Counted from the first letter of the whole stretch, positions 5,281-48,606 are shown. The stretch: 56,606 bases of DNA, filler included, from Sphacelaria rigidula (GCA_964200075.2; 7 parts of 7 records of this genome joined end to end with filler, not necessarily neighbours in it); one strand, 5' to 3'. Program-made: numbers and translations. Notes: generated by a model not told the origin, from the sequence alone.

Positions 5281-5609
5281 CCCGTTCAAAACCATAACAT
5301 TTTTTAGGTCACCCTGTCGACCAAAATTTTACGACCAATGCGTAAGCGCGGCTCCAAAATTGATTATCTTTTTATGGAGAATCCATGTCGGGACTCTCGG
5401 TTCCCGAATTCTCCGTTAACCCTTAGGGGAAGGGCATCTCCAGGTCTTCCGCCCCCGTATCGTGGAATAACTCGGCTTAGGTGATCAAGTCGTGCCAGGA
5501 ATGATAGGGTAGTATACCCGTACGTAGATCCCAGCCAATGCTACCGAAATGTCAAGGGTCCTAACCTCCACTTCCTCCGCCTTCCCGTGATCATTCGGTG
5601 ACTCTGAAG

Positions 5610-7478
5610 GCAAAGGAAAAAGATGCAAAGAGCGACACTCCAGCAACTGCGGCGGCAGAGGACCCTGTCGGGGGTACGAGCAAAACCACCGCGCCTGAGA
5701 AAAATGACAAGAAGCGCAAGGGGGATTCGTCTAAGGATAAGGAGAACAAGCGAAAAGAGGAAAAGTCTCAGAAATCGAGCAAGGAAGGTTCTTCGAAAAC
5801 CAAAGACGATCATTCCACGGGCAAGGACAATCACCCGAAAATCAAGGATGATTCTTCGAAAGTAACGGATGATTCTTCCAAAAGCACGGCCGATCCTTCC
5901 AAAAACAACGGGGACTCTGGAGGTGGGGCTGCCGGTGCTGCTGGAGATACCGGGGCTAATGGACGTCGCAAAAGTAAGAGCAAAAACTCCCAGACGACAG
6001 CGGCCGAAATTGGTGACGGCGGGAGTAGCGAACCCAGCCTTCCTGACCAACACGCGGGGGGCGACAAGAAGAAGAAGGACGGCACCGAGCGCATAAAAAG
6101 CGGAGGAGAGGGAGAGAAAGACTCGAAAAAAAAAGGCGAAACATCGAAAAATGACGGGAATAACAGTGGGGAACCGGGCCCGACTGGCCAATCAGCGAAG
6201 GAAGAAAAGAAAAAAGACGGCGCAGAGCGCAGAAGAAGTAGCGGGGGGGGAGATGAAGGCTCGAAAAAGAAGGGCGAAACATCAAAAGACGACGGGGCTA
6301 ATAATAGGGAACCGGACCCTGATGACCAAGAAGCGAACGGAAAGAAGACGAAGGATGGCACAGAGCGCGGAAAAAGCAGCGGACAGGAAGATGAAGGCTC
6401 GAAAAAGAAGGGTAAGACTGCCAAAGACGACGAGAATAATGGTAGCGAACCGGGCTCCGCTGACCAGCAGGCGAAGGGGGACAAGAAGAAGAAGGGTGGT
6501 ACTGAGCGCGAAACGAACAACAGAGAGGGAGACGGAAGCTCGAAAAAAAAAGGCGAAACATCGAAAAATGACGGGAATAACAGTGGGGAACCGGGCCCGA
6601 CTGGCCAATCAGCGAGAGAAGAAAAGAAAAAAGACGGCGCAGAGCGCAGAAGAAGTAGCGGGGGGGGAGATAAAGGCTCGAAAAAAAAGGGCGAAACATC
6701 AAAAGTTGACAGTGCTAATAATAGGGAACCGGACCCTGATGACCAAGAAGCGAACGGAGAGAAGAAGGATGGCACAGAGCGGGGAAAAAGCAGCGGACAG
6801 GGAGATGAAGGCTCGAAAAAGAAGGGTAAGACTGCCAAAGACGACGAGAATAATGATAGCGAACCGGGCTCCGCTGACCAGCAGGCGAAGGGAGACAAGA
6901 AGAAGGAGGGTGGTACTGAGCGCGAAACGAACAGAGAGGGAGACCAAAGCTCGAAAAAGGAGGGAGAAACGACCAAAGACGACGAGAGAGCTCGCTCGAG
7001 AGATGACGGTAACGGTACCAAATATGACGGCAGAAAAGTAGTCGATTCGCCGGCGGCAGCCGAAAACACAAAGGAAGCGGAGGGAAGCCAAAATCAAATG
7101 TCGGCACCACTAGCAACGGAAGCTGCCGTGGGGGCTGTACCCGAAACAGCGGAACAGGTCCGCGTGAGCAAGGCAGGATCTACACGAGAAGAACCACAAG
7201 AAAAAAGCCATAAAAACGGCGCAACAAAACAAAACCCTAGAAACGGCGAGTCAGCGGGTGGGAAGTACCGGGGCGCGGAAGCGACGGGAACGAGTGAAAC
7301 GACTGTAGGGGTGGTTGTTGTTGGCCAGCGGGATGGCGCACGGGCGAAAATGACGATGTCCCCTACCCCGCCCCGAGCGAGGGAAAATTCGGCCAGTTTG
7401 TCGCCCACCAAGGGAAGCAGAGGGGCCAAGCTTGCGATATCTATCGACGCTTCTTCGTTCTCTTCTGACGCCAGCAAG
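5610..7478 (+). CDS. Large internal exon (623 codons) of a Lys/Asp/Gly/Glu/Ser-rich, probably disordered repeat protein of unknown function
   Basis: Lies within the 631-aa ORF 5598-7493. A pyrimidine tract and AG end at 5609 and a donor AAG|GTGTGT starts at 7479, both in phase 0. Purine-rich coding bias; repeat indels keep the frame. Confidence 0.7.
6123..6985 (+). repeat. Coding higher-order tandem repeat: about 46-aa monomers grouped as a trimer of 417/411 bp, present twice
   Basis: TCGAAAAAAAAAGGCGAAACATCGAAAAATGACGGG at 6123 and 6540, with a third start at 6951. Monomer consensus SKKKGETSKxDxxNxxEPxxxxQxAxxxKKKxGxER. Confidence 0.9.
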
Positions 7479-7544
7479 GTGTGTAGTTTATGACATGTTC
7501 TACTATAGCGCCCCCCCCCCCACCCCACCCCAAAAGTCAGCCTG

Positions 7545-8002: not shown

Positions 8003-8102
8003 NNNNNNNNNNNNNNNNNNNNNNNNNNNNNNNNNNNNNNNNNNNNTTAATTAATTAANNNNNNNNNNNNNNNNNNNNNNNNNNNNNNNNNNNNNNNNNN
8101 NN
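8003..8102. other. Artificial contig spacer (44 N + TTAATTAATTAA + 44 N)
   Basis: Identical 100-bp spacer with a six-frame stop linker, found six times in the window. Confidence 0.98.
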
Positions 8103-8250
8103 GGGTAAGCTGGGGCTACCAGGTTACCGTTTTTTTTCTGCGCGCTTGCGTTTTTTTTTTTTTTTTTCGGTAAGCAGGATGGTGTTCGAGCTAGATCATA
8201 TTGTGCGGGGTGGGAGACCCCAAATTCCAGATGATCATACTGCATTGACC
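8103..8250 (+). repeat. Family A partial copy at a contig start
   Basis: GTAAGCTGGGGCTACCAGGTTACCG...GAGCTAGATCAT..TGTGCGG.GTGGGAGA matches about 7649-7790. Confidence 0.75.
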
Positions 8251-8394
8251 ACGCATCCCTTGCGAGACGCGGCACTTATTACACCGGGAGGGCGGGGTAT
8301 CACAGTAGCTTGTGGACGTCACTCACCTGCGGGGAAATGCCAAATGCCTCCGATACACGTTTTCCGACCTCTCGCATGTCGGTGATTGGCGCAC

Positions 8395-8479
8395 CTGTTG
8401 TCCGGTCCTGAAGAGACACGAAAAATATTTCGCTGAACAAGCGGCGCTCCCTAGCGTACGAGCAGGCTTGAAGGGCCAC
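8395..8479 (-). CDS. CHAT-STAND gene, exon E (after Walker A): VALQACSYARERRLFSEIFFVSLQDRTT
   Basis: Acceptor TTTCTTGGACAG|GTG at 8480/8479 is in phase 0 with the previous exon. The donor is uncertain (GTGCGC at 8394 or GTCGGA near 8368). Confidence 0.7.
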
Positions 8480-9235
8480 CTGTCCAAGAAACGCAAGGGG
8501 GGGGGAAACAGGACAAACGTTACATATACAGGGAATTGAGGTACCGTAAGGGAATAAAGGCGATAAAAGAAGCGATGGTATTCCAGATATTTCAGGCACT
8601 GTGCCCCACCTCATAGGTTACGGGAAATAACACCCCCTCTTTTGATGAAGTTTCGCGAACCTTGTTTTCTCGGGAACCAAGGCCTGCACGGGATAATTCC
8701 AACGACACAGCTTTCGACCTTGTGGCAACCGCCGCTGTTGGTGACAAATTGGAGATTTAGAGATATTTGACACGAAGGTGTGATTTGGTACCTTGCAATC
8801 AAAACGACATACGTGATCTTCATATTCAAGTCGGAGCTCACGTGTAAAAACGGGGCACGATCCGAATGGGTCGTTTGCGAGCAATGCTTCATCTACAGTA
8901 AAGTTCGGGTGATCGCACATCTCCGCAGGAGAACTGTGGCCTCGAAACAGTACCAAACTACCGCCGTGGGTAACAGTCGAAGGTGGAGGTAGTCCCGAGG
9001 GGGCGGGGAGGTGCTATACGAGACAGTCCTTTTGATTGGGTAATATCTGTGCCTTGAAAAATAATTAAGTTGGTCAACACCGGGTGCGGTGCTCGGTAGG
9101 GTTGCTGTACTTATTAGGTCTGGTCTACCCTGCGATATACTGAACAAGCAGGTACTTTGAATTCGATGGTCGATACTCAATCTCTGCTGCTGCCAATATC
9201 GAAGGCGACCAAGTACTATAAAGTACAGTACCCAC

Positions 9236-9319
9236 CTCTGTCTTTCCGATACCCGCCAAGCCTTTGATGGTGATCACCTTGCTGTGCACCATGTGCGTGT
9301 AAACCTCCTGCACCAGAGC
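9236..9319 (-). CDS. CHAT-STAND gene, exon D with Walker A: ALVQEVYTHMVHSKVITIKGLAGIGKTE
   Basis: Acceptor CCCTCTCAG| and donor GAG|GTGGGT; 84 nt, phase 0-0; GxxGxGKT P-loop preceded by the hydrophobic strand VITI, as in NB-ARC/STAND NTPases. Confidence 0.85.
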
Positions 9320-10094
9320 CTGAGAGGGCGCACGATTAACGTACGTGGAGCGACACAGCAAAGAGCGGAGTTTGGCTCGCTTTCAAAAGACAGTCCTCAT
9401 ATACACAGATATGATGCCCACACCGCGGGACACGGCCAACAAAAAAAAGCATCGCAAATTCACGTAGGAGCTCTGAAAACTGGTGTTCTGTACATGACCG
9501 AGTGTAGCATCATACCGCAAAGACGCAATACAAGCACGGCGTCAAAACACCATCGTGGAATTCCTTGAGCATGTACCGAGGTTCGGATATTTTCCAAACG
9601 CAATGTGCTATAGTACAATATCATCATCCATGACTTCCAAACTAGACTTACACAAATCTGAGGATTTCGGCCTCTGTGAAGGAGGCCCGTGGTTTGAGAT
9701 TCGGACCCCAGTCCGTTGGGCAATGTTTCTCGGTCCAGAAACTCAATCCAAGGGCTGAACACGTCTCCACAGAGACTGAAATCCCAGATTGGTACAACTG
9801 CAAAATGAAAGCCATGAAGGTTGGTCTACAACACGGTAACTACACAGCTTTTCCCCGCGAAGGTTGTTACTGTACTCGTACCATTTGACAAGACCTCCGA
9901 GCAAAATTTGGAATGGCAACTCCTTCTCGATGCCAGTAGCACCGCGGTTGTCAACACGATTGCGTTCCACCAGTCGTCCGCTCTTCCGCACGTTCACACA
10001 GGATTTTCACGATACTCAAGGGTGTGACAAGCAACCCAACCTTCTTCTACCGGGTGACGACAGCAAGGTATTCTCAGCGCGGCGTGCCCAACCT

Positions 10095-10502
10095 CATAAT
10101 TTTCGAAGACGAACAACATGTTCGTGAGATCAGAAACGGATTTTTTTTCGGAAGGGGAGCTTCTTCGCAATATACACCAAGACGGTCCGATCGTCCGAAA
10201 CGGCCGTCACCCCCCTGAAAGCCCGTCATCTATCGGGAATGTGGGGAATAAGATTTCTCATCGACAGGGTTAGTGCGGAGTCATGAGGGAAAATGTGTAA
10301 AAAAAAAGAAGCACATTTTCGGCCGTATCTCATGGAAGGCGTCACCGATTAAAATCTGATTGCGCCAAAATTCCCGCCAGATCATGGGCTTTAGGGGCGT
10401 GACGGTCGTTTCGGACGATTCGACCGTCTTCGTGTAAATCACTAAAAAAATATCAATTACTAACCTCACGAACATTTTGTTGACTGTGGACGAAAACTAT
10501 TC
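10095..10502. mobile_element. Foldback/MITE-like element with long imperfect inverted arms
   Basis: ATGTTCGTGAG (about 10118) pairs with CTCACGAACAT (about 10465); TACACCAAGACGGTCCGATCGTCCGAAACGGCCGTCAC pairs with GTGACGGTCGTTTCGGACGATTCGACCGTCTTCGTGTA. Confidence 0.7.
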
Positions 10503-10954
10503 CCTGCCACCCCCCCCCCCCACACACACACACGTATTCGATACAGCCACACGGTCTACTGTTGGCTCAAAGGGGCGCGTGAACGTGTGGATCTACTACC
10601 ATGGACCAACGACATTTGCACAAATTAGCAATGTAAGACAGACAAAGGGAACACAAACCGCCTGCCGTTGCTACCACCGATCACCTACGGGAAAATCAGA
10701 GCAGCGGACGACGCATTCCCCGACAAGAGCCCGTTAATACATATTTGGAGAAGAGAACCACGCGTGGCTACAGTACCTCAAGGCACCAAGGTGCAAAGAG
10801 GCCATATGTGCGTTTTGTTCATGATATCTATCGTCGTGGTGTAGCTCATTTCGCAAGACATCACACACCCGACACTTCCTACGATAGCCACCGCCCAAAA
10901 AAGTGCATGGTTTTGCGAGGCAAAATCTTCACTTAAATCGAAATGAGAAAAGCC

Positions 10955-11120
10955 GAACACAACGAGCAGCTGGGAACTCCCACGCTTGGATTCGTTCTAG
11001 GCAATGTCGCCAATATGAGGCTTCATGCAGCCTGAAACCAAACATCAGGCGCTGTATGATCATTTTTGTCGTGACACTTTTGGGCTGGTTTTGGGGGGGG
11101 CTATCGTAGAAAGTGTCACC
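10955..11120 (+). repeat. Family D dispersed repeat (other copies 55540-55711 plus strand, 35980-36125 minus strand)
   Basis: Shared AACGAGC.GCTG..CCCACGCTTGG.TTCGTT.TAG...TATGAGGC..TTCATG.AG.CTGAAACCAAACAT.AGGCGC...ATCGTAGA.AGTGTCAC. Confidence 0.75.
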
Positions 11121-11204
11121 CGTTGGTTGATTTTTCAAGAGGTTCCCGAACATCATTTGATTCTAGAATGAGTGTGCGACCAGCGTCTCCTTCACCGTTC
11201 ATGA

Positions 11205-11266
11205 TACAGTAGTACTACAGGACAGTACAGTACAGTACAGTACAGCACAGTACAGTACAGTAGTAC
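11205..11266. repeat. (CAGTA)n microsatellite
   Basis: CAGTACAGTACAGTACAGTACAGCACAGTACAGTACAG read directly. Confidence 0.85.
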
Positions 11267-11409
11267 ACTTGATTTTGTGCAAGCTGCTATGTCATACTGT
11301 ACCATGCCGTCGTCCGTGTTGGTTAGTGCACGCGCCTGTACTTGCAATGCCCGCGGTCTCCGAAGTTGGGATGATCCCTGCTTGTAATGTAGCAACACAC
11401 AGTACTTAC

Positions 11410-11572
11410 CTCGCGGCCTAGGTAGTTGGGGGATCCCTGCTTGCAGTGCATTCTGGGCAACCTGGGCGTGACATTCACGAAGCTCCGGGGTTGAGCATCG
11501 TCGAAGGGGGAGACAGAGTGATCTCCGTTGTCGGGGAGCAGCACACAGCGTCCTCGTTCACTCTCGGGAAGG
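11410..11572 (-). CDS. CHAT-STAND gene, exon C (linker into the NTPase): LPESERGRCVLLPDNGDHSVSPFDDAQPRSFVNVTPRLPRMHCKQGSPNYLGRE
   Basis: Acceptor TTGCTGGCAG| is in phase 2, matching the upstream exon; canonical donor GAG|GTAAGT; ends in the (F/Y)xGRE motif that opens STAND NTPase domains. Confidence 0.8.
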
Positions 11573-13725
11573 CTGCCAGCAACCGGAATACGAAGAACAC
11601 AATGCTCGCAGGTGAGGTAGCAATTCCAAAAAAAAACACACGCTATTGGGCTGAATGGAAACTGACTTTTGTACTTATTCGTTTTCAAAGACCATGAGGC
11701 AAGCGGCCACGGCCAAACAACACAAGGGGAGAAAATGTCGCCACGAAGTCAAGTAGCACGAAACGAAAAGAAAGAAGTCTATCTTACAGCACAGAGTTGG
11801 AGCGGCCGGTTCGGGAGGAGTATGCGACGTTAGGAATACTGCGCCTGGAACAGTTGTGCTTCGCCTGTCTCACAAAAAGCTGTGGTTTGGGCAGAGCAGC
11901 AGCAGTGTTTTCACAAGCAGCACTGACAGTACAAACCAACTCTCCTCCCATTGCGCTGAGTGCAGGCTCAAACTCCCCCAACAAAGTGAAGGGGAGAACG
12001 AGGGTTACGGTACAGCGGTGGACTCGGTTTAGCGTCGCCTGCCTGATTTTCTGCCAAACGGATAAAGCGCCGATTTTTGGCTCTGCACCATTTTCGATGG
12101 ATTTTGTGCTGGTGTACCAAAACCGGCATAAAATGGGGCCAATATTCATGCGCGCGAGTTTAATCGATTCCACAAGTGCTCCTATGTGTGGCGAATGTCA
12201 CTCTGGTGACAAGTTCTCTGACGACGAGTCCTCATCCGCGTCATCTTGACTGGTGAAGGTGGAATCAACACGAGCTCGATTCCCGCTAGATAGATGGGTT
12301 AGGGCTTTTTGTTCAAAATACCTGATATTCGTCGTTGAAAGCGTCGACACGTGGGTAGCAAAAATATTTTATTTGACGAGAGTAGACCCGGTGCGAGAGT
12401 ACCGGTGGTCACGATCCAATCCGCGAGACCATAATGCAAGGCGTCACTTAATCCCTTGACAGGATGGACTCGTCCCGAGGAAAAGGGAGGGTTGAAAGGG
12501 TGACGAGAAAAACCAACAAGGATACGAAAAGTAAACCACCTCGTCCGCTCCGAAGTGCGCCACTCAACACGAAACGAGGGCAATGAGGCTGCCGTATCGC
12601 CGTCACGACTCCTTCACTCTGCTCGACCACGTCTTTCAACTACACAACTGGACATCCATCCGTTTGAACGTGCGGATCACACAACAATAATTATGTTTTT
12701 TTCCCCCATACTGCGCCCAACACCATTGTTCTTGCACGCCACCCACACTGTTGCACGGCCCATAGCACAGCACGTGCGAAGAAAGGCTCGGGTTCTGAAC
12801 GGGGGTACCAAGAGCACTCTACCTACGCCATGCGACAGGTCCGCTGGAGGCTACGTACCCCCATCGTCGGGCGCCGCATAACGTACTGACTGCTACTCTG
12901 AGGCGGACAGTGTGCTCTGCTAGAGGCAACTACTCATGACGCGCATTTCGACGTTGGTGTACAGGCGCTGAAGAGCAAATTGATGTTGTCATCTGAATCA
13001 GTGAAGTTAATCGAAACGGCGACTGCCGGAGGCAACAACTGCTTGAATTCCTGTTGGACGCTTGGTCTACACAGGGGCTCCCGCAAGGCGCAAAACAAGT
13101 GAACAATGTTGCCTCGAGCTTACTCAGTACACTTAGAGCGCCACTGCTGGCCGTAAACGAATGCTGTGTCACCCGAACGTCGAAATATAGCATTTGCTCG
13201 CTACTTCACGCTGTCGCAAACAAGCAACAATGTGGAGCTGCCCGAGACTTGACTGTATACAATCGAAATCAAGCACATGGCTCAGCAATGCCTCCACGTA
13301 GGCAGCAGCACAGAGGATCTGTTGCGATCTTCGAGAATTCCGAACATCCGAAGTACACAATACGAGCACACATTCTACTCCACACCGCGTTATCGGTAAC
13401 GGTGACTCCCTTTGCGGCTACTGAGTACGCTTCTACTTTTGCGGATAATATCCACGTTTATTTGGTATTTTCTTTTTTCCGACGTGAGCCGGAGGCCGTG
13501 TACGCTGTGTTTTCACCGCCTACACACATGAAAAAAGACTGGGCGCGCCATACGGCCCATAAAGTGTTTGTGGGTGTGTCTTCGTATCAATCAATCATGT
13601 ACTATATCTCACACTTTCAAAACCCCTCCCCTTCGGAAAGAGTCCGTAATCTCAAGAGATCTACCCGTCTCCTTCCCCCGGTATGCACGTGCATATTTTC
13701 CTCCGACAAAAGTTGGTAAACGCAC

Positions 13726-13858
13726 CGGGTCACGCCCGCATCGAAGGACTGTCGCAAAGTACGACCTTGGGCGAGGTAGTGATAGAACTTGCACATGAAG
13801 TCCAGCATCACACCATGATGGTCGTCGCTTGTATCGGCAGCCACCACGTGCGAGATGC
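13726..13858 (-). CDS. CHAT-STAND gene, exon B (C-terminal part of the CHAT-like domain): GISHVVAADTSDDHHGVMLDFMCKFYHYLAQGRTLRQSFDAGVT
   Basis: Acceptor TTTCGACAG| (phase 1) and donor CG|GTGCGT (phase 2); FMxxFYxxLxxGxTLxxSF is typical of the end of CHAT domains. Confidence 0.8.
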
Positions 13859-14789
13859 CTGTCGAAACCAAGGGGAAAGAGTGCGAGAGTTATTCTTGTT
13901 GCACTTTTCTCTCGCGTCTGTTGTTGATTGACTATTCTTGCTGTTTAATTACGCCTTCAATTTTGTTGTTCTCTTTTCTGGTTCAGGCTTATTTTCAAAA
14001 GCGTATATTCTGCTACGGTACCCGAATCCCCTCTCCCAGGTACTCTACGACCACGGTTCGAGGAGTCTGTTCGTGTCTGTGACTAATGTTGCTTGATTGA
14101 TTGATTGACGTACGTGAGCACAAACTGATCCACCACGTAACCGGACGCGCGTTGTAACGATCATTTTTACTTGAGTGGCCCTTGGGGTACTAATCAATCC
14201 CCACTAGACCGCACCGAAAGCGTTTAATCTCTGCTTGATTTGATCGTCGTAAACGCCAAAAATCGAGAGCCGCAACCCCTTGTTCCGAACCCAAACCTCG
14301 GAAAAAATCCCCTCCGGAGTGCTTTTGCGGCTAGGACCGCAAAGGCGTTCTCTCCGAGGGGACAGGACTCGCAGAAAAATGATCTTCCCCCAAAAACGTC
14401 CTTTTGCTCGCGAGGAGCTCCGGCGCCTAAAGGGTTGTAAATGCGACGACGCTCCAATTATATCTTGCAGGACACGAGAGATGATGAGCCATTTTCCGAA
14501 GGTGTTGCATCACTCCCACCGTCTCCGATTGGATCATGACTCGAAGAAAATACTGTACAACGCTAACCCATCGGACACAAAAGTTGATACGATGGGTCCC
14601 TCCATCGAGTGGTAGACAGGGAAAGACACAGTCCAGGCGCTGTTGGCTTGCACCGAGCAGCATGACGAGCACAACGCAACAACTGACCAAGGCCACGCAG
14701 CTTGTTCCAGCCTCCTGAAAAATTGTTTTCATGATAACTGAGAAAATTGTATTACACTAGTGTAGATGAAAGAACACACACTACAGTAC

Positions 14790-14862
14790 CTGCTCTGATA
14801 AACGCCCCTGCAACAACCTTCGCCGACGCGGCGCTGAGAACCACCACCTCTGGGAGAGTCTC
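14790..14862 (-). CDS. CHAT-STAND gene, exon A (catalytic-Cys strand, here VVLSAAS): ETLPEVVVLSAASAKVVAGAFIRA
   Basis: Long pyrimidine tract with acceptor GTGCAG| and donor CAG|GTACTG (phase 1); joins exon B to give AFIRAGISHVVA, the CHAT motif AFxxAGxxxVVA. Confidence 0.8.
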
Positions 14863-15062
14863 CTGCACCACACAGAGCAACAGGAAGAAGAAAAAGAAAA
14901 ACGCGGTTACTCCCTCATAATGTGTAACTTCAACCCAAAAAGTACACGAACCAAGCATTCAAACAAGTGAGCTTGGAATGCTACTCGAGCCAGACTTTAA
15001 ACTCGAACGTGCAGAAAAAACTCGTAACTCATATGTGGGGCACACCCATGGTTCGAAGCATG

Positions 15063-15145
15063 TTTGATTGATTTAATTGATTTGATTGATTGTCGCACTT
15101 TAAGTGACCTCCCCGGGGTCCAGCCGTGGTCTCATGATGGACGTA
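15063..15145 (-). mobile_element. Family B: 3' end of a SINE/LINE-like retroposon with an (AATC)n tail
   Basis: Minus strand reads TACGTCCATCATGAGACCACGGCTGGACCCCGGGGAGGTCACTTAAAGTGCGAC-(AATC)n. Similar copies at 34089-34161 (-), 42923-42975 (+) and a stub at 15850-15885 (-). Confidence 0.65.
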
Positions 15146-16065
15146 TTTAGCCTTTTTATTTACAATAACAAAAATAATGCAAAGTGGCGCGTTACAACAG
15201 AGGCGCAACAAATCGGTCGGCCGAGAAGCGTTCTACTTCCGCACAGAGTCCTTTTCTGTTGCCAATCGGGATCATCATTTTTTTCCCTTGAGTTTTTCAC
15301 TGAGAAGGAACCAACAATAACGCCAAAATTATACTCTCTTGGCCTGACTGTTTGCGACCAATATGCGTCTACAAGCTTGCCATCGCGCCGCGGTGTGTCT
15401 ATAATAACAGTACCCCTGATAGCATTAAATCGGGAAAAACAAGGCTTCGGTTCTCGGCATCGGCCTTTTTTTTTCCCTAGAAGTATCTGATTTACAACAA
15501 TACGTCGTTGAACACGTGAGAACGTCAGTACTACAGAGAAAAATACTTTAGCTGACGAGAGTCGACCCGGTGCGGGAGTATTTGGTCGTGATCCAATCGG
15601 CGATAGCAAATTGCAAGGCGTGTATCAGAAGAGAGATGAGTTGATCGCTTGAGACCACGGACCGTTCCCAAAGAACGGGGACTAGTTGCAAGTGTGCAAA
15701 AAATACAAACTAGGGCTGCCGAGCAAATCACGGACTGACGCAGCATCGTACAGCATACGGCCGTCTTTCTAGTCATACACTTCAACCCCGCCCCTTTCTC
15801 GGAGCGACTCCATCTGTCTCAAGGGATGAAGTCATCTCTCCCTCGGCTGTTTGATTTTGATTGATTGATTGTCGCACTTTAAGGGGACTGATTCCAGTAC
15901 AAGTAGGTCGCCTGTAGTTCAATCGGTCTCATACGGATCTTCCGTAGTGTGGGTGCCCTTTTATTCGTGTAGATGTTTTTGTTTCTTGCCTTCTTCTGCG
16001 GGCTGTTTGGGCTATGGTGCACTCTTTGACCACGGGTTCGAGAGATCGAGCTAGTGTGATGGATG

Positions 16066-16070
16066 TAATA

Positions 16071-16101
<31 letters not shown>

Positions 16102-16103
16102 TA
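16066..16103. repeat. (TAA)n microsatellite at a contig end
   Basis: Read directly. Confidence 0.9.
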
Positions 16104-16203
16104 NNNNNNNNNNNNNNNNNNNNNNNNNNNNNNNNNNNNNNNNNNNNTTAATTAATTAANNNNNNNNNNNNNNNNNNNNNNNNNNNNNNNNNNNNNNNNN
16201 NNN
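16104..16203. other. Artificial contig spacer
   Basis: 44 N + TTAATTAATTAA + 44 N. Confidence 0.98.
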
Positions 16204-24204: not shown

Positions 24205-24304
24205 NNNNNNNNNNNNNNNNNNNNNNNNNNNNNNNNNNNNNNNNNNNNTTAATTAATTAANNNNNNNNNNNNNNNNNNNNNNNNNNNNNNNNNNNNNNNN
24301 NNNN
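24205..24304. other. Artificial contig spacer
   Basis: 44 N + TTAATTAATTAA + 44 N. Confidence 0.98.
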
Positions 24305-32305: not shown

Positions 32306-32405
32306 NNNNNNNNNNNNNNNNNNNNNNNNNNNNNNNNNNNNNNNNNNNNTTAATTAATTAANNNNNNNNNNNNNNNNNNNNNNNNNNNNNNNNNNNNNNN
32401 NNNNN
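32306..32405. other. Artificial contig spacer
   Basis: 44 N + TTAATTAATTAA + 44 N. Confidence 0.98.
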
Positions 32406-40406: not shown

Positions 40407-40506
40407 NNNNNNNNNNNNNNNNNNNNNNNNNNNNNNNNNNNNNNNNNNNNTTAATTAATTAANNNNNNNNNNNNNNNNNNNNNNNNNNNNNNNNNNNNNN
40501 NNNNNN
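40407..40506. other. Artificial contig spacer
   Basis: 44 N + TTAATTAATTAA + 44 N. Confidence 0.98.
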
Positions 40507-48506: not shown

Positions 48507-48606
48507 NNNNNNNNNNNNNNNNNNNNNNNNNNNNNNNNNNNNNNNNNNNNTTAATTAATTAANNNNNNNNNNNNNNNNNNNNNNNNNNNNNNNNNNNNNN
48601 NNNNNN
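48507..48606. other. Artificial contig spacer
   Basis: 44 N + TTAATTAATTAA + 44 N. Confidence 0.98.

Follow-up and report, generated by a model that had tools for sequence, protein, structure and literature searches.

CHAT proteases joined to NLR-type STAND nucleoside triphosphatases (NTPases) have been described in fungi and bacteria, where, according to the available text of PMC10197012, the caspase thus forms part of the receptor. Here, we describe a gene from the brown alga Sphacelaria rigidula, located in a 56,606-nucleotide (nt) stretch of joined genomic pieces from assembly GCA_964200075.2 (hereafter, the window). Like the fungal and bacterial CHAT-NLRs, the window gene joins a caspase-related CHAT domain to a STAND NTPase. 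However, the available text describes the former as active, with some of them controlling gasdermins and with ANK, TPR or WD40 repeats, whereas the window gene is devoid of the catalytic nucleophile, comes from a brown alga and has relatives with SH2 domains. We consider it very probable that the exons in the window encode part of a CHAT-fold pseudoprotease carried on a STAND NTPase. An earlier reading, made from the DNA sequence alone, had proposed a "dead CHAT + STAND NTPase", and this is supported by the CHAT matches of the relatives, the predicted fold of the nearest of these, the loss of the active-site Cys and an intact Walker A motif.

The locus also bears comparison with several better-known proteins. 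A profile of 60 family members, searched against the sequences in PDB, matched AfsR (E = 8e-19), the CHAT protein 8tl0 (9e-17), Dictyostelium STATa (3e-16), further STATs (linker and SH2), Apaf-1 (4e-12), plant CNLs (~1e-10) and NLRP5 (1e-8). The SAVED-CHAT protein of type III CRISPR (8tl0) is the best solved match to the N-terminal domain of the family, both by profile and by fold (1.6e-9); it is, however, bacterial, catalytically active and triggered by the cyclic-oligonucleotide sensor SAVED instead of a STAND NTPase. The Apaf-1/CED-4 apoptosome and the plant CNL resistosomes are alike in their NTPase, as the profile matches show, and the G-R-E plus Walker A stretch of the window resembles the start of NB-ARC. 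In those systems, unlike the window family with its built-in CHAT domain, the role of caspase or effector falls to a separate protein or to a CC/CARD domain. The human pseudo-caspase cFLIP(L) is, according to the available text of PMC7586951, a caspase-fold paralogue without the catalytic Cys that modulates an active paralogue; it has no NTPase and is not a family member, and the likeness that we infer is one of logic, not of descent. In brown algae themselves, the Ectocarpus NB-ARC-TPR family, as presented in the accessible parts of Zambounis et al. (2012; PMC3341825), comprises STAND candidates for immunity, and some relatives of the window gene likewise carry TPR.

Two database proteins are referred to in what follows, i.e., P0001, a partial protein from S. 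rigidula itself, and P0002 from Choristocarpus tenellus, the nearest relative. All five exons lie on the minus strand, within the second of the seven pieces that make up the window (piece 2, 8103-16103). They are listed below in gene order, together with the introns, joints and, for one of the joints, the sequencing runs that carry it (X6, X7 and X8):

14862-14790, minus strand: exon A, 73 nt (24 codons plus 1 nt); last core strand of the CHAT/caspase-like domain and former active-site motif VVVLSAAS; matched by tblastn to P0002 residues 120-141
14829-14827, minus strand: codon GCG (Ala), at the position of the catalytic Cys
13859-14789, minus strand: intron A/B, 931 nt, GT..AG; skip seen only in RNA-like contigs
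13858-13726, minus strand: exon B, 133 nt; C-terminal strand and helix of CHAT, with the family-conserved H, F, FY, L and G kept; present in P0001
11573-13725, minus strand: intron B/C, 2153 nt, GT..AG; joint 11572/13726 in X6, X7 and X8
11572-11410, minus strand: exon C, 163 nt; linker with the LLP-x-H motif (LLPDNGDH) and the G-R-E lead-in to the NTPase
9320-11409, minus strand: intron C/D, 2090 nt, GT..AG; joint 9319/11410; holds an inverted-repeat element resembling a miniature inverted-repeat transposable element (MITE) and high-copy repeats
9319-9236, minus strand: exon D, 84 nt; first strand of the STAND NTPase and Walker A motif GLAGIGKT (9262-9239)
8480-9235, minus strand: intron D/E, 756 nt, GT..AG; joint 8479/9236
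8479-8327, minus strand: exon E, 153 nt; helix after Walker A and next NTPase strand; donor GT at 8326-8325; RNA-like contig pieces stop at 8326

Each of exons A-E is preceded by AG and followed by GT, all eight splice sites being canonical. When joined by these coordinates, the exons displayed phases of 1, 2, 0 and 0 and gave 606 nt, i.e., 202 codons, with no stop. The five minus-strand exons, splice sites and phases of the sequence-only reading were thereby confirmed. Its GCG codon at 14829-14827, which differs from TGT and TGC at all three positions, and its intact Walker A motif (GLAGIGKT, 9262-9239) were likewise upheld. Only its placement of the end of exon E near 8395 was wrong, the true end being 8327.

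Four sequencing runs were mapped to piece 2, of which three (X6, X7 and X8) are small, come from one study and were guessed to be RNA. The fourth (X1), from the same organism, is large and DNA-like, containing 88% of the sampled words of the stretch and covering all 30 depth bins. A single contig in each of X6 (2,023 nt), X7 (2,054 nt) and X8 (4,558 nt) carried all four joints, i.e., 8479/9236, 9319/11410, 11572/13726 and 13858/14790, which read CT..AC on the plus strand and so GT..AG on the gene strand. None of these joints was present in X1, the contigs of which crossed the introns without a change of letter. Because intron-less canonical joints occur in the RNA-like contigs and are absent from the DNA-like run, we conclude that the locus is transcribed and spliced, and not the untranscribed pseudogene that had been named as one of three outcomes refuting the pseudoprotease interpretation. 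Nor do the transcripts contain a second exon able to supply the S-A-C motif, another such outcome: exon A is spliced straight to exon B in the RNA-like contigs, with no Cys-bearing exon between them. No alternative letter was listed for exon A in X1 or in the three RNA-like runs covering it. One candidate Cys exon, an in-frame LLFSAC at 12978-12961, falls inside intron B/C and was taken as a chance occurrence because the RNA-like contigs skip this intron.

The X8 contig continues for ~360 nt further 5' of exon A and for ~3.6 kb further 3' of exon E, and the gene therefore extends past both ends of piece 2. The earlier statement that the gene ends and the catalytic His region could not be found thus holds, these parts being outside piece 2. 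Beyond the window lie the His exon, Walker B, the remainder of the NTPase, the C-terminal domain and both gene ends. In keeping with this, tblastn queries with nine relatives left the region upstream of exon A unmatched and placed no later exon in any of the other six pieces. When P0002 residues 1-119 (which include the His region) were used as the query, nothing in the window was matched, and a motif scan covering all six frames of the window (Walker B, GLPL, RNBS-B, H-x-x-x-H-G and S-A-C-like) revealed no further exon of the gene. P0001 (190 amino acids (aa); NCBI 'unnamed protein product, partial [Sphacelaria rigidula]'), the single hit of a search with exon E, corresponds to exons B-E with identical splicing. 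It is, however, mis-bounded, starting a few codons inside intron A/B and running on past the exon E donor as far as the following stop, and it does not include exon A, hence the active-site position is missing from it.

A phmmer search of 1.84 billion representative proteins with P0001 as the query detected its nearest relative at E = 1e-34, with 314 hits at E <= 0.001, 60 of which reached E <= 1e-10, values which place the reality of the gene far above chance. In most of these hits, the alignment began with the opening residues of exon B and took in Walker A. By tblastn, exons A-E were colinear on P0002 residues 120-322, and exons A-B aligned residue for residue with the Pfam CHAT stretch of P0002 (112-186). 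The named relatives were all ochrophyte algae, the rest coming from MMETSP, EukProt and unnamed assemblies. Amongst the former were proteins from C. tenellus (P0002 and P0015), Ectocarpus (P0003, and P0151, i.e., CBN79812.1, 'SH2 domain containing protein'), Laminaria digitata, Scytosiphon promiscuus, Phaeothamnion confervicola and Chrysoparadoxa australica. A pattern search of genome contigs with P0006 gave 124 matches, none of which was confirmed; this type of search detects close relatives only and has little bearing on bacteria.

No Pfam CHAT match was obtained for exons A-E taken one by one, which are too short, or for P0001, only ~68 residues of the CHAT domain being in the window. Pfam CHAT (PF12770) reached or exceeded its cut-off in 18 of 20 relatives (10/10 and 8/10); of the two exceptions, one scored 23.3 against 24 bits and the other had no match. 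In a further set, comprising 50 of the 60 relatives of at least 600 aa, CHAT was matched at E <= 1e-4 by 42. The same relatives also carry NACHT, NB-ARC or AAA_16 matches. The CHAT assignment of the sequence-only reading was accordingly sustained through the alignment of exons A-B to the CHAT domains of relatives, and not through any Pfam match of these exons themselves. As the exons give no CHAT match of their own and an NB-ARC score below the cut-off, it is on homology to relatives that the family membership of the window gene rests.

The C-termini of 70 relatives were variable, with SH2 in 18/70 (plus one STAT_linker), TPR in 14/70, and a few with SAM, UBA, kinase or other domains. Ectocarpus P0151 matched Pfam SH2 at 1e-6, its best PDB matches were STATa and STAT6, and its GTFLVRFS motif aligned with the STAT SH2 domain, including the FLVR arginine. 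Taken together, the sequence comparisons indicate that the window gene is a member of a large and widespread family of protist proteins that combine CHAT with a STAND NTPase. Their predicted layout is an N-terminal CHAT protease domain with a caspase fold and a His/Cys dyad, which a conserved linker connects to a STAND P-loop NTPase (NB-ARC/NACHT kind), and a variable C-terminus, e.g., a STAT-type linker-SH2 or TPR. The description of the gene as 'NLR-like' is incomplete because the C-terminal sensor part is outside the window, and the SH2 and TPR domains of the relatives had not been foreseen.

Within the linker encoded by exon C, the columns of the LLP-x-H motif were occupied by L in 116/116, L in 113/116, P in 101/116 and H in 112/116 sequences. 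A near-invariant K-F-x-L-L-P, followed a few residues on by H and then by F, lies between the CHAT core and the NTPase and is kept in the window, as is a conserved His (112/116) in the strand after the active-site helix. All of the family columns of the Walker A motif GLAGIGKT (G, G, G, K and T) are also kept. Exon D alone gave Pfam matches to NB-ARC, nSTAND3 and nSTAND6 at E ~0.1, whereas P0001 matched NB-ARC at E = 0.0036 with 17.0 bits against a cut-off of 23.5, only ~70 residues of that domain being in the window. Only weak P-loop matches were obtained for P0001 with NCBIfam. Full-length relatives pass Pfam NACHT (PF05729) and/or NB-ARC (PF00931). NACHT is matched by relatives more often than NB-ARC (29/50 vs 15/50), and the NTPase may be of either class.

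The catalytic dyad was examined in an alignment of the joined window peptide with the 115 relatives that reach exon A, drawn from 154 non-self hits (in the remaining 39, which were dropped, exon A was uncovered). At the Cys column, 106/115 relatives have Cys and the other nine have Arg (3), Ser (3), Ala (1), Tyr (1) or Leu (1). In the window, the S-A-C motif that provides the catalytic Cys after the central strand has Ala instead. We conclude that the Cys-to-Ala change is real and unusual. The His column (H-x-x-G-H-G) contains His in 94/101 filled rows, and both dyad residues are present in 90 relatives; in P0002, the His is replaced by Asn and the Cys by Arg. Amongst the 35 columns conserved in at least 80% of sequences, the window keeps 26 (74%) and P0002 keeps 27. 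The changes in the window cluster near the former active site (F8V, C12A, S14A and D39H), with Walker A and the LLP-x-H linker motif being intact. Given that Ala stands where 106/115 relatives have Cys, the window protein would appear to be a member of the CHAT group by descent and fold, but not an active one. For the window gene, the label 'dead' refers to the missing nucleophile, because the His exon is outside the window.

The fold was examined in the nearest relative, P0002, and not in the window fragment. An AlphaFold2 model of P0002, built with the family alignment, had a predicted local distance difference test (pLDDT) score of 86 and a predicted template modelling (pTM) score of 0.85. 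When this model was compared with PDB structures by Foldseek, the top match was the SAVED-CHAT filament 8tl0 (E = 1.6e-9, probability 1.00), followed by caspase-4, MALT1, Dronc and caspase-11, with sugar kinases of similar topology at ~1e-4. Because of the matches to 8tl0 and the caspases, the dyad-less lineage is predicted to keep the CHAT/caspase fold.

P0002 (CAM9422873.1, 'unnamed protein product', 382 aa) is the closest counterpart of the window gene, having the same layout and likewise no Cys. It differs in that the Cys position is occupied by Arg instead of Ala and the His position is visible, with a change to Asn; the end of the P0002 model looks like an intron read-through. The two proteins are 47% identical over 200 residues (exons A-E). 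A quick maximum-likelihood tree was built from 186 columns, after removal of the Cys column and those next to it; in this tree, the window and P0002 were sisters (Shimodaira-Hasegawa-like approximate likelihood ratio test (SH-aLRT), 99) placed among ochrophyte sequences. Losses of the Cys on this tree numbered at least 5, as forced by well-supported branches, and up to 8. C. tenellus also possesses P0015, in which the His and Cys are intact and which groups with the Ectocarpus 'SH2 domain containing protein', P0151 (CBN79812.1). The latter, from Ectocarpus siliculosus, is 39% identical to the window over exons A-E, with a CHAT domain followed by a P-loop NTPase and with the same linker motif; its relatives occur in Scytosiphon, Laminaria and Choristocarpus (P0015). 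It differs, however, in coming from another paralogue lineage, one in which the His/Cys dyad is retained (as P0015 and P0163 show), and in having a STAT-type SH2 end.

The simplest reading of these sequence relationships would be an old brown-algal duplication, with one of the two copies later losing the dyad but being retained ever after, and the comparisons point to an old brown-algal pseudoprotease lineage beside an active twin. Alternatively, long-branch effects or independent losses (Ala vs Arg) may account for the pattern in place of a single old loss. Fragments from unnamed assemblies showed 62-76% identity to single exons, with the similarity ending exactly at the exon ends of the window (P0007, P0019, P0046 and others), which suggests orthologues with the same intron positions in other algae. 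P0046 was 76% identical over exon B, and other such fragments were 62% identical over exon E.

How might such a protein work? By analogy with STAND NTPases such as Apaf-1 and the NLRs, and with caspase-fold proteases that are activated by proximity, canonical members of the family would resemble apoptosomes or inflammasomes with the caspase built in. The C-terminal SH2 or TPR domain would read a signal, causing the NTPase to oligomerize in a nucleotide-dependent manner, and this would bring the CHAT domains together and so activate them. In the window protein, the NTPase most probably still switches and oligomerizes, with the dead CHAT domain serving as a non-cleaving binding module. The latter may regulate or act as a decoy for a dyad-intact paralogue, in the manner of caspase-8 and cFLIP, or it may hold substrates. 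Oligomerization, a regulator or decoy role and any link to immunity or cell death are proposals. Taken as a whole, the package of a pseudoprotease-STAND protein with an NTPase switch and a dead CHAT domain as a non-cleaving module seems to us somewhat better than an even proposition. A specific role as a regulator is put forward with much less assurance than the identity of the exons.

Several observations tell against the pseudoprotease interpretation. The window exons have no Pfam CHAT match and their NB-ARC score of 17.0 bits falls short of the cut-off of 23.5. Neither Walker B and the remainder of the NTPase nor the C-terminal domain is included in the window, the intactness of the NTPase being presumed from Walker A. 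As the position of the His is also beyond the window, full inactivity of the protein is presumed. The median relative keeps 94% of the conserved columns as compared with 74% in the window, which would also fit decay. At the Cys position, the window has Ala and P0002 has Arg; the two losses of Cys could therefore be independent. Finally, the RNA nature of X6-X8 is a guess, and all three runs come from one study.

Amongst the competing explanations, the one that survives best, albeit unlikely in our judgement, is that the NTPase and the C-terminal domain signal alone, with the CHAT domain being an inert structural relic that has no dealings with the active paralogue. The good conservation of Walker A and the linker, alongside the F8V, C12A, S14A and D39H changes near the active site, would be expected under this explanation, as would the variable and presumably signal-reading C-termini of the relatives (SH2, TPR, SAM and kinase). 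However, the CHAT fold is confidently predicted even in the dyad-less P0002 and the core positions of exon B are kept, whereas a relic with no role would be expected to have been lost, or to have decayed further, since the split from the Choristocarpus lineage.

A gene that is transcribed but decaying, i.e., an expressed pseudogene or an outgoing copy, is decidedly less plausible still. In its favour are the 26/35 conserved columns vs the relatives' median of 94%, the fact that only an internal part of the gene is readable and that its public model, P0001, is partial and mis-bounded, and the fast birth and death known for STAND/NLR-like families, as stated in the accessible parts of Zambounis et al. 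(2012; PMC3341825). These points have to be set against five exons with 202 codons, no stop and eight canonical splice sites, spliced contigs in three runs, and an intact Walker A and linker motif. Moreover, the distant brown-algal sister is also dyad-less and yet 47% identical, which would require long purifying selection.

That the protein is still a protease, using another nucleophile (for example, the Ser adjoining the Ala, or a Cys contributed by some other part of the fold), is very improbable: Ser occupies the Cys column in 3/115 relatives and the window has a Ser before the preceding Ala and another directly after (VVVLSAAS), but the conserved Ser two places past the Cys is also lost in the window (to Ala), the nearest relative, P0002, is without the His as well, and we know of no clan CD member that works without the Cys.

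The pseudoprotease-STAND interpretation is thus the one that we prefer, and it admits a bolder extension. Brown algae may have maintained, from before they radiated, a two-gene module consisting of an active CHAT-STAND NTPase with a STAT-type SH2 domain and a co-assembling dyad-less twin that sets its threshold, an idea that we offer as no better than a long shot. A complex prediction for two CHAT domains of Choristocarpus, the active one of P0015 (residues 1-260) and the dead one of P0002 (residues 1-235), in which alignments were not used, scored 0.10 vs a mark of 0.34. If true, such a module would be an independent invention of the caspase-8/cFLIP logic, with phosphotyrosine-type recognition, far from animals.

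With respect to novelty, we found no description of the CHAT-STAND-SH2 layout in the literature searched for this architecture or for pseudo-caspase NLRs. There is no mention of CHAT, caspase or SH2 in the accessible main text of Zambounis et al. (2012; PMC3341825), nor of CHAT, SH2 or caspase in that of the Phaeoexplorer preprint, the supplementary orthogroup tables of which may list the family. A search for NB-ARC with SH2 in algae gave, by title, only an Acanthamoeba genome paper, and, judging by titles and one passage, the papers on SH2 domains and Ectocarpus that the search turned up contain nothing on a CBN79812.1-type protein. The CHAT-NLR kind is counted as known because it has been described in fungi and bacteria (PMC10197012). 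What is new is that the gene comes from a brown alga, that a seemingly long-lived lineage has lost the dyad and that relatives have a STAT-type SH2 domain.

The window in which the gene was found is composite, consisting of seven pieces of ~8,001 nt each joined by N44-TTAATTAATTAA-N44 linkers, and pieces that adjoin in it are not necessarily neighbours in the genome. The linkers and the inverted repeats of intron C/D are as follows:

8003-8102, 16104-16203, 24205-24304, 32306-32405, 40407-40506 and 48507-48606: linkers, with a stop in six frames, as read from the sequence
10161-10219 and 10390-10448: inverted repeat with 59-nt arms, 81% complementary
10112-10148 and 10445-10481: inverted repeat with 37-nt arms, 81% complementary

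The two inverted repeats are nested within 10112-10481 and give this part of intron C/D its MITE-like look. The same intron contains, by eye, a short run of a five-base unit (tactg-like) at 11200-11290 on the minus strand. High-copy stretches, which we regard as dispersed repeats, occupy introns and flanks of piece 2 at 8103-8369, 10773-11306, 12375-12641, 15045-15311 and 15579-16103. Their word depth in X1 is ~500 to 9,000x that of unique parts, and they are also deep in the RNA-like runs. Some of the repeats of piece 2 are mutually related, e.g., 12360-12401 and 15539-15580.

Three other stop-free frames matched no Pfam family. The longest of these, 642 codons on the plus strand of piece 1 (5565-7493), has a high content of K, E, G, S and D, contains long internal repeats and is overlapped by equally long frames on the opposite strand; it could be either a low-complexity repeat protein or a compositional artefact. 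A second, of 240 codons on the plus strand (12997-13719), lies antisense in intron B/C, has a depth of 0 or under 2 in X6-X8 and is possibly a repeat or transposon remnant. The third is a 154-codon minus-strand frame upstream of exon A.

Should the window gene prove to be only a decaying copy, the value of the locus would lie in the family that it reveals, and not in the gene itself. With at least 5 to 8 losses of the Cys in that family, it adds a further case of the repeated origin of pseudoenzymes from proteases. Regulated cell death and innate immunity are almost uncharted in brown algae, where the STAND candidates so far are only the NB-ARC-TPR genes. The locus points to a second brown-algal family, absent from the literature that we searched, in which the STAND switch itself carries a caspase-fold protease. 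A dead copy has apparently long been kept beside an active paralogue and, if this is true, the pair would provide a genetic handle, pseudoenzyme vs enzyme, on how a receptor with a built-in caspase is controlled.

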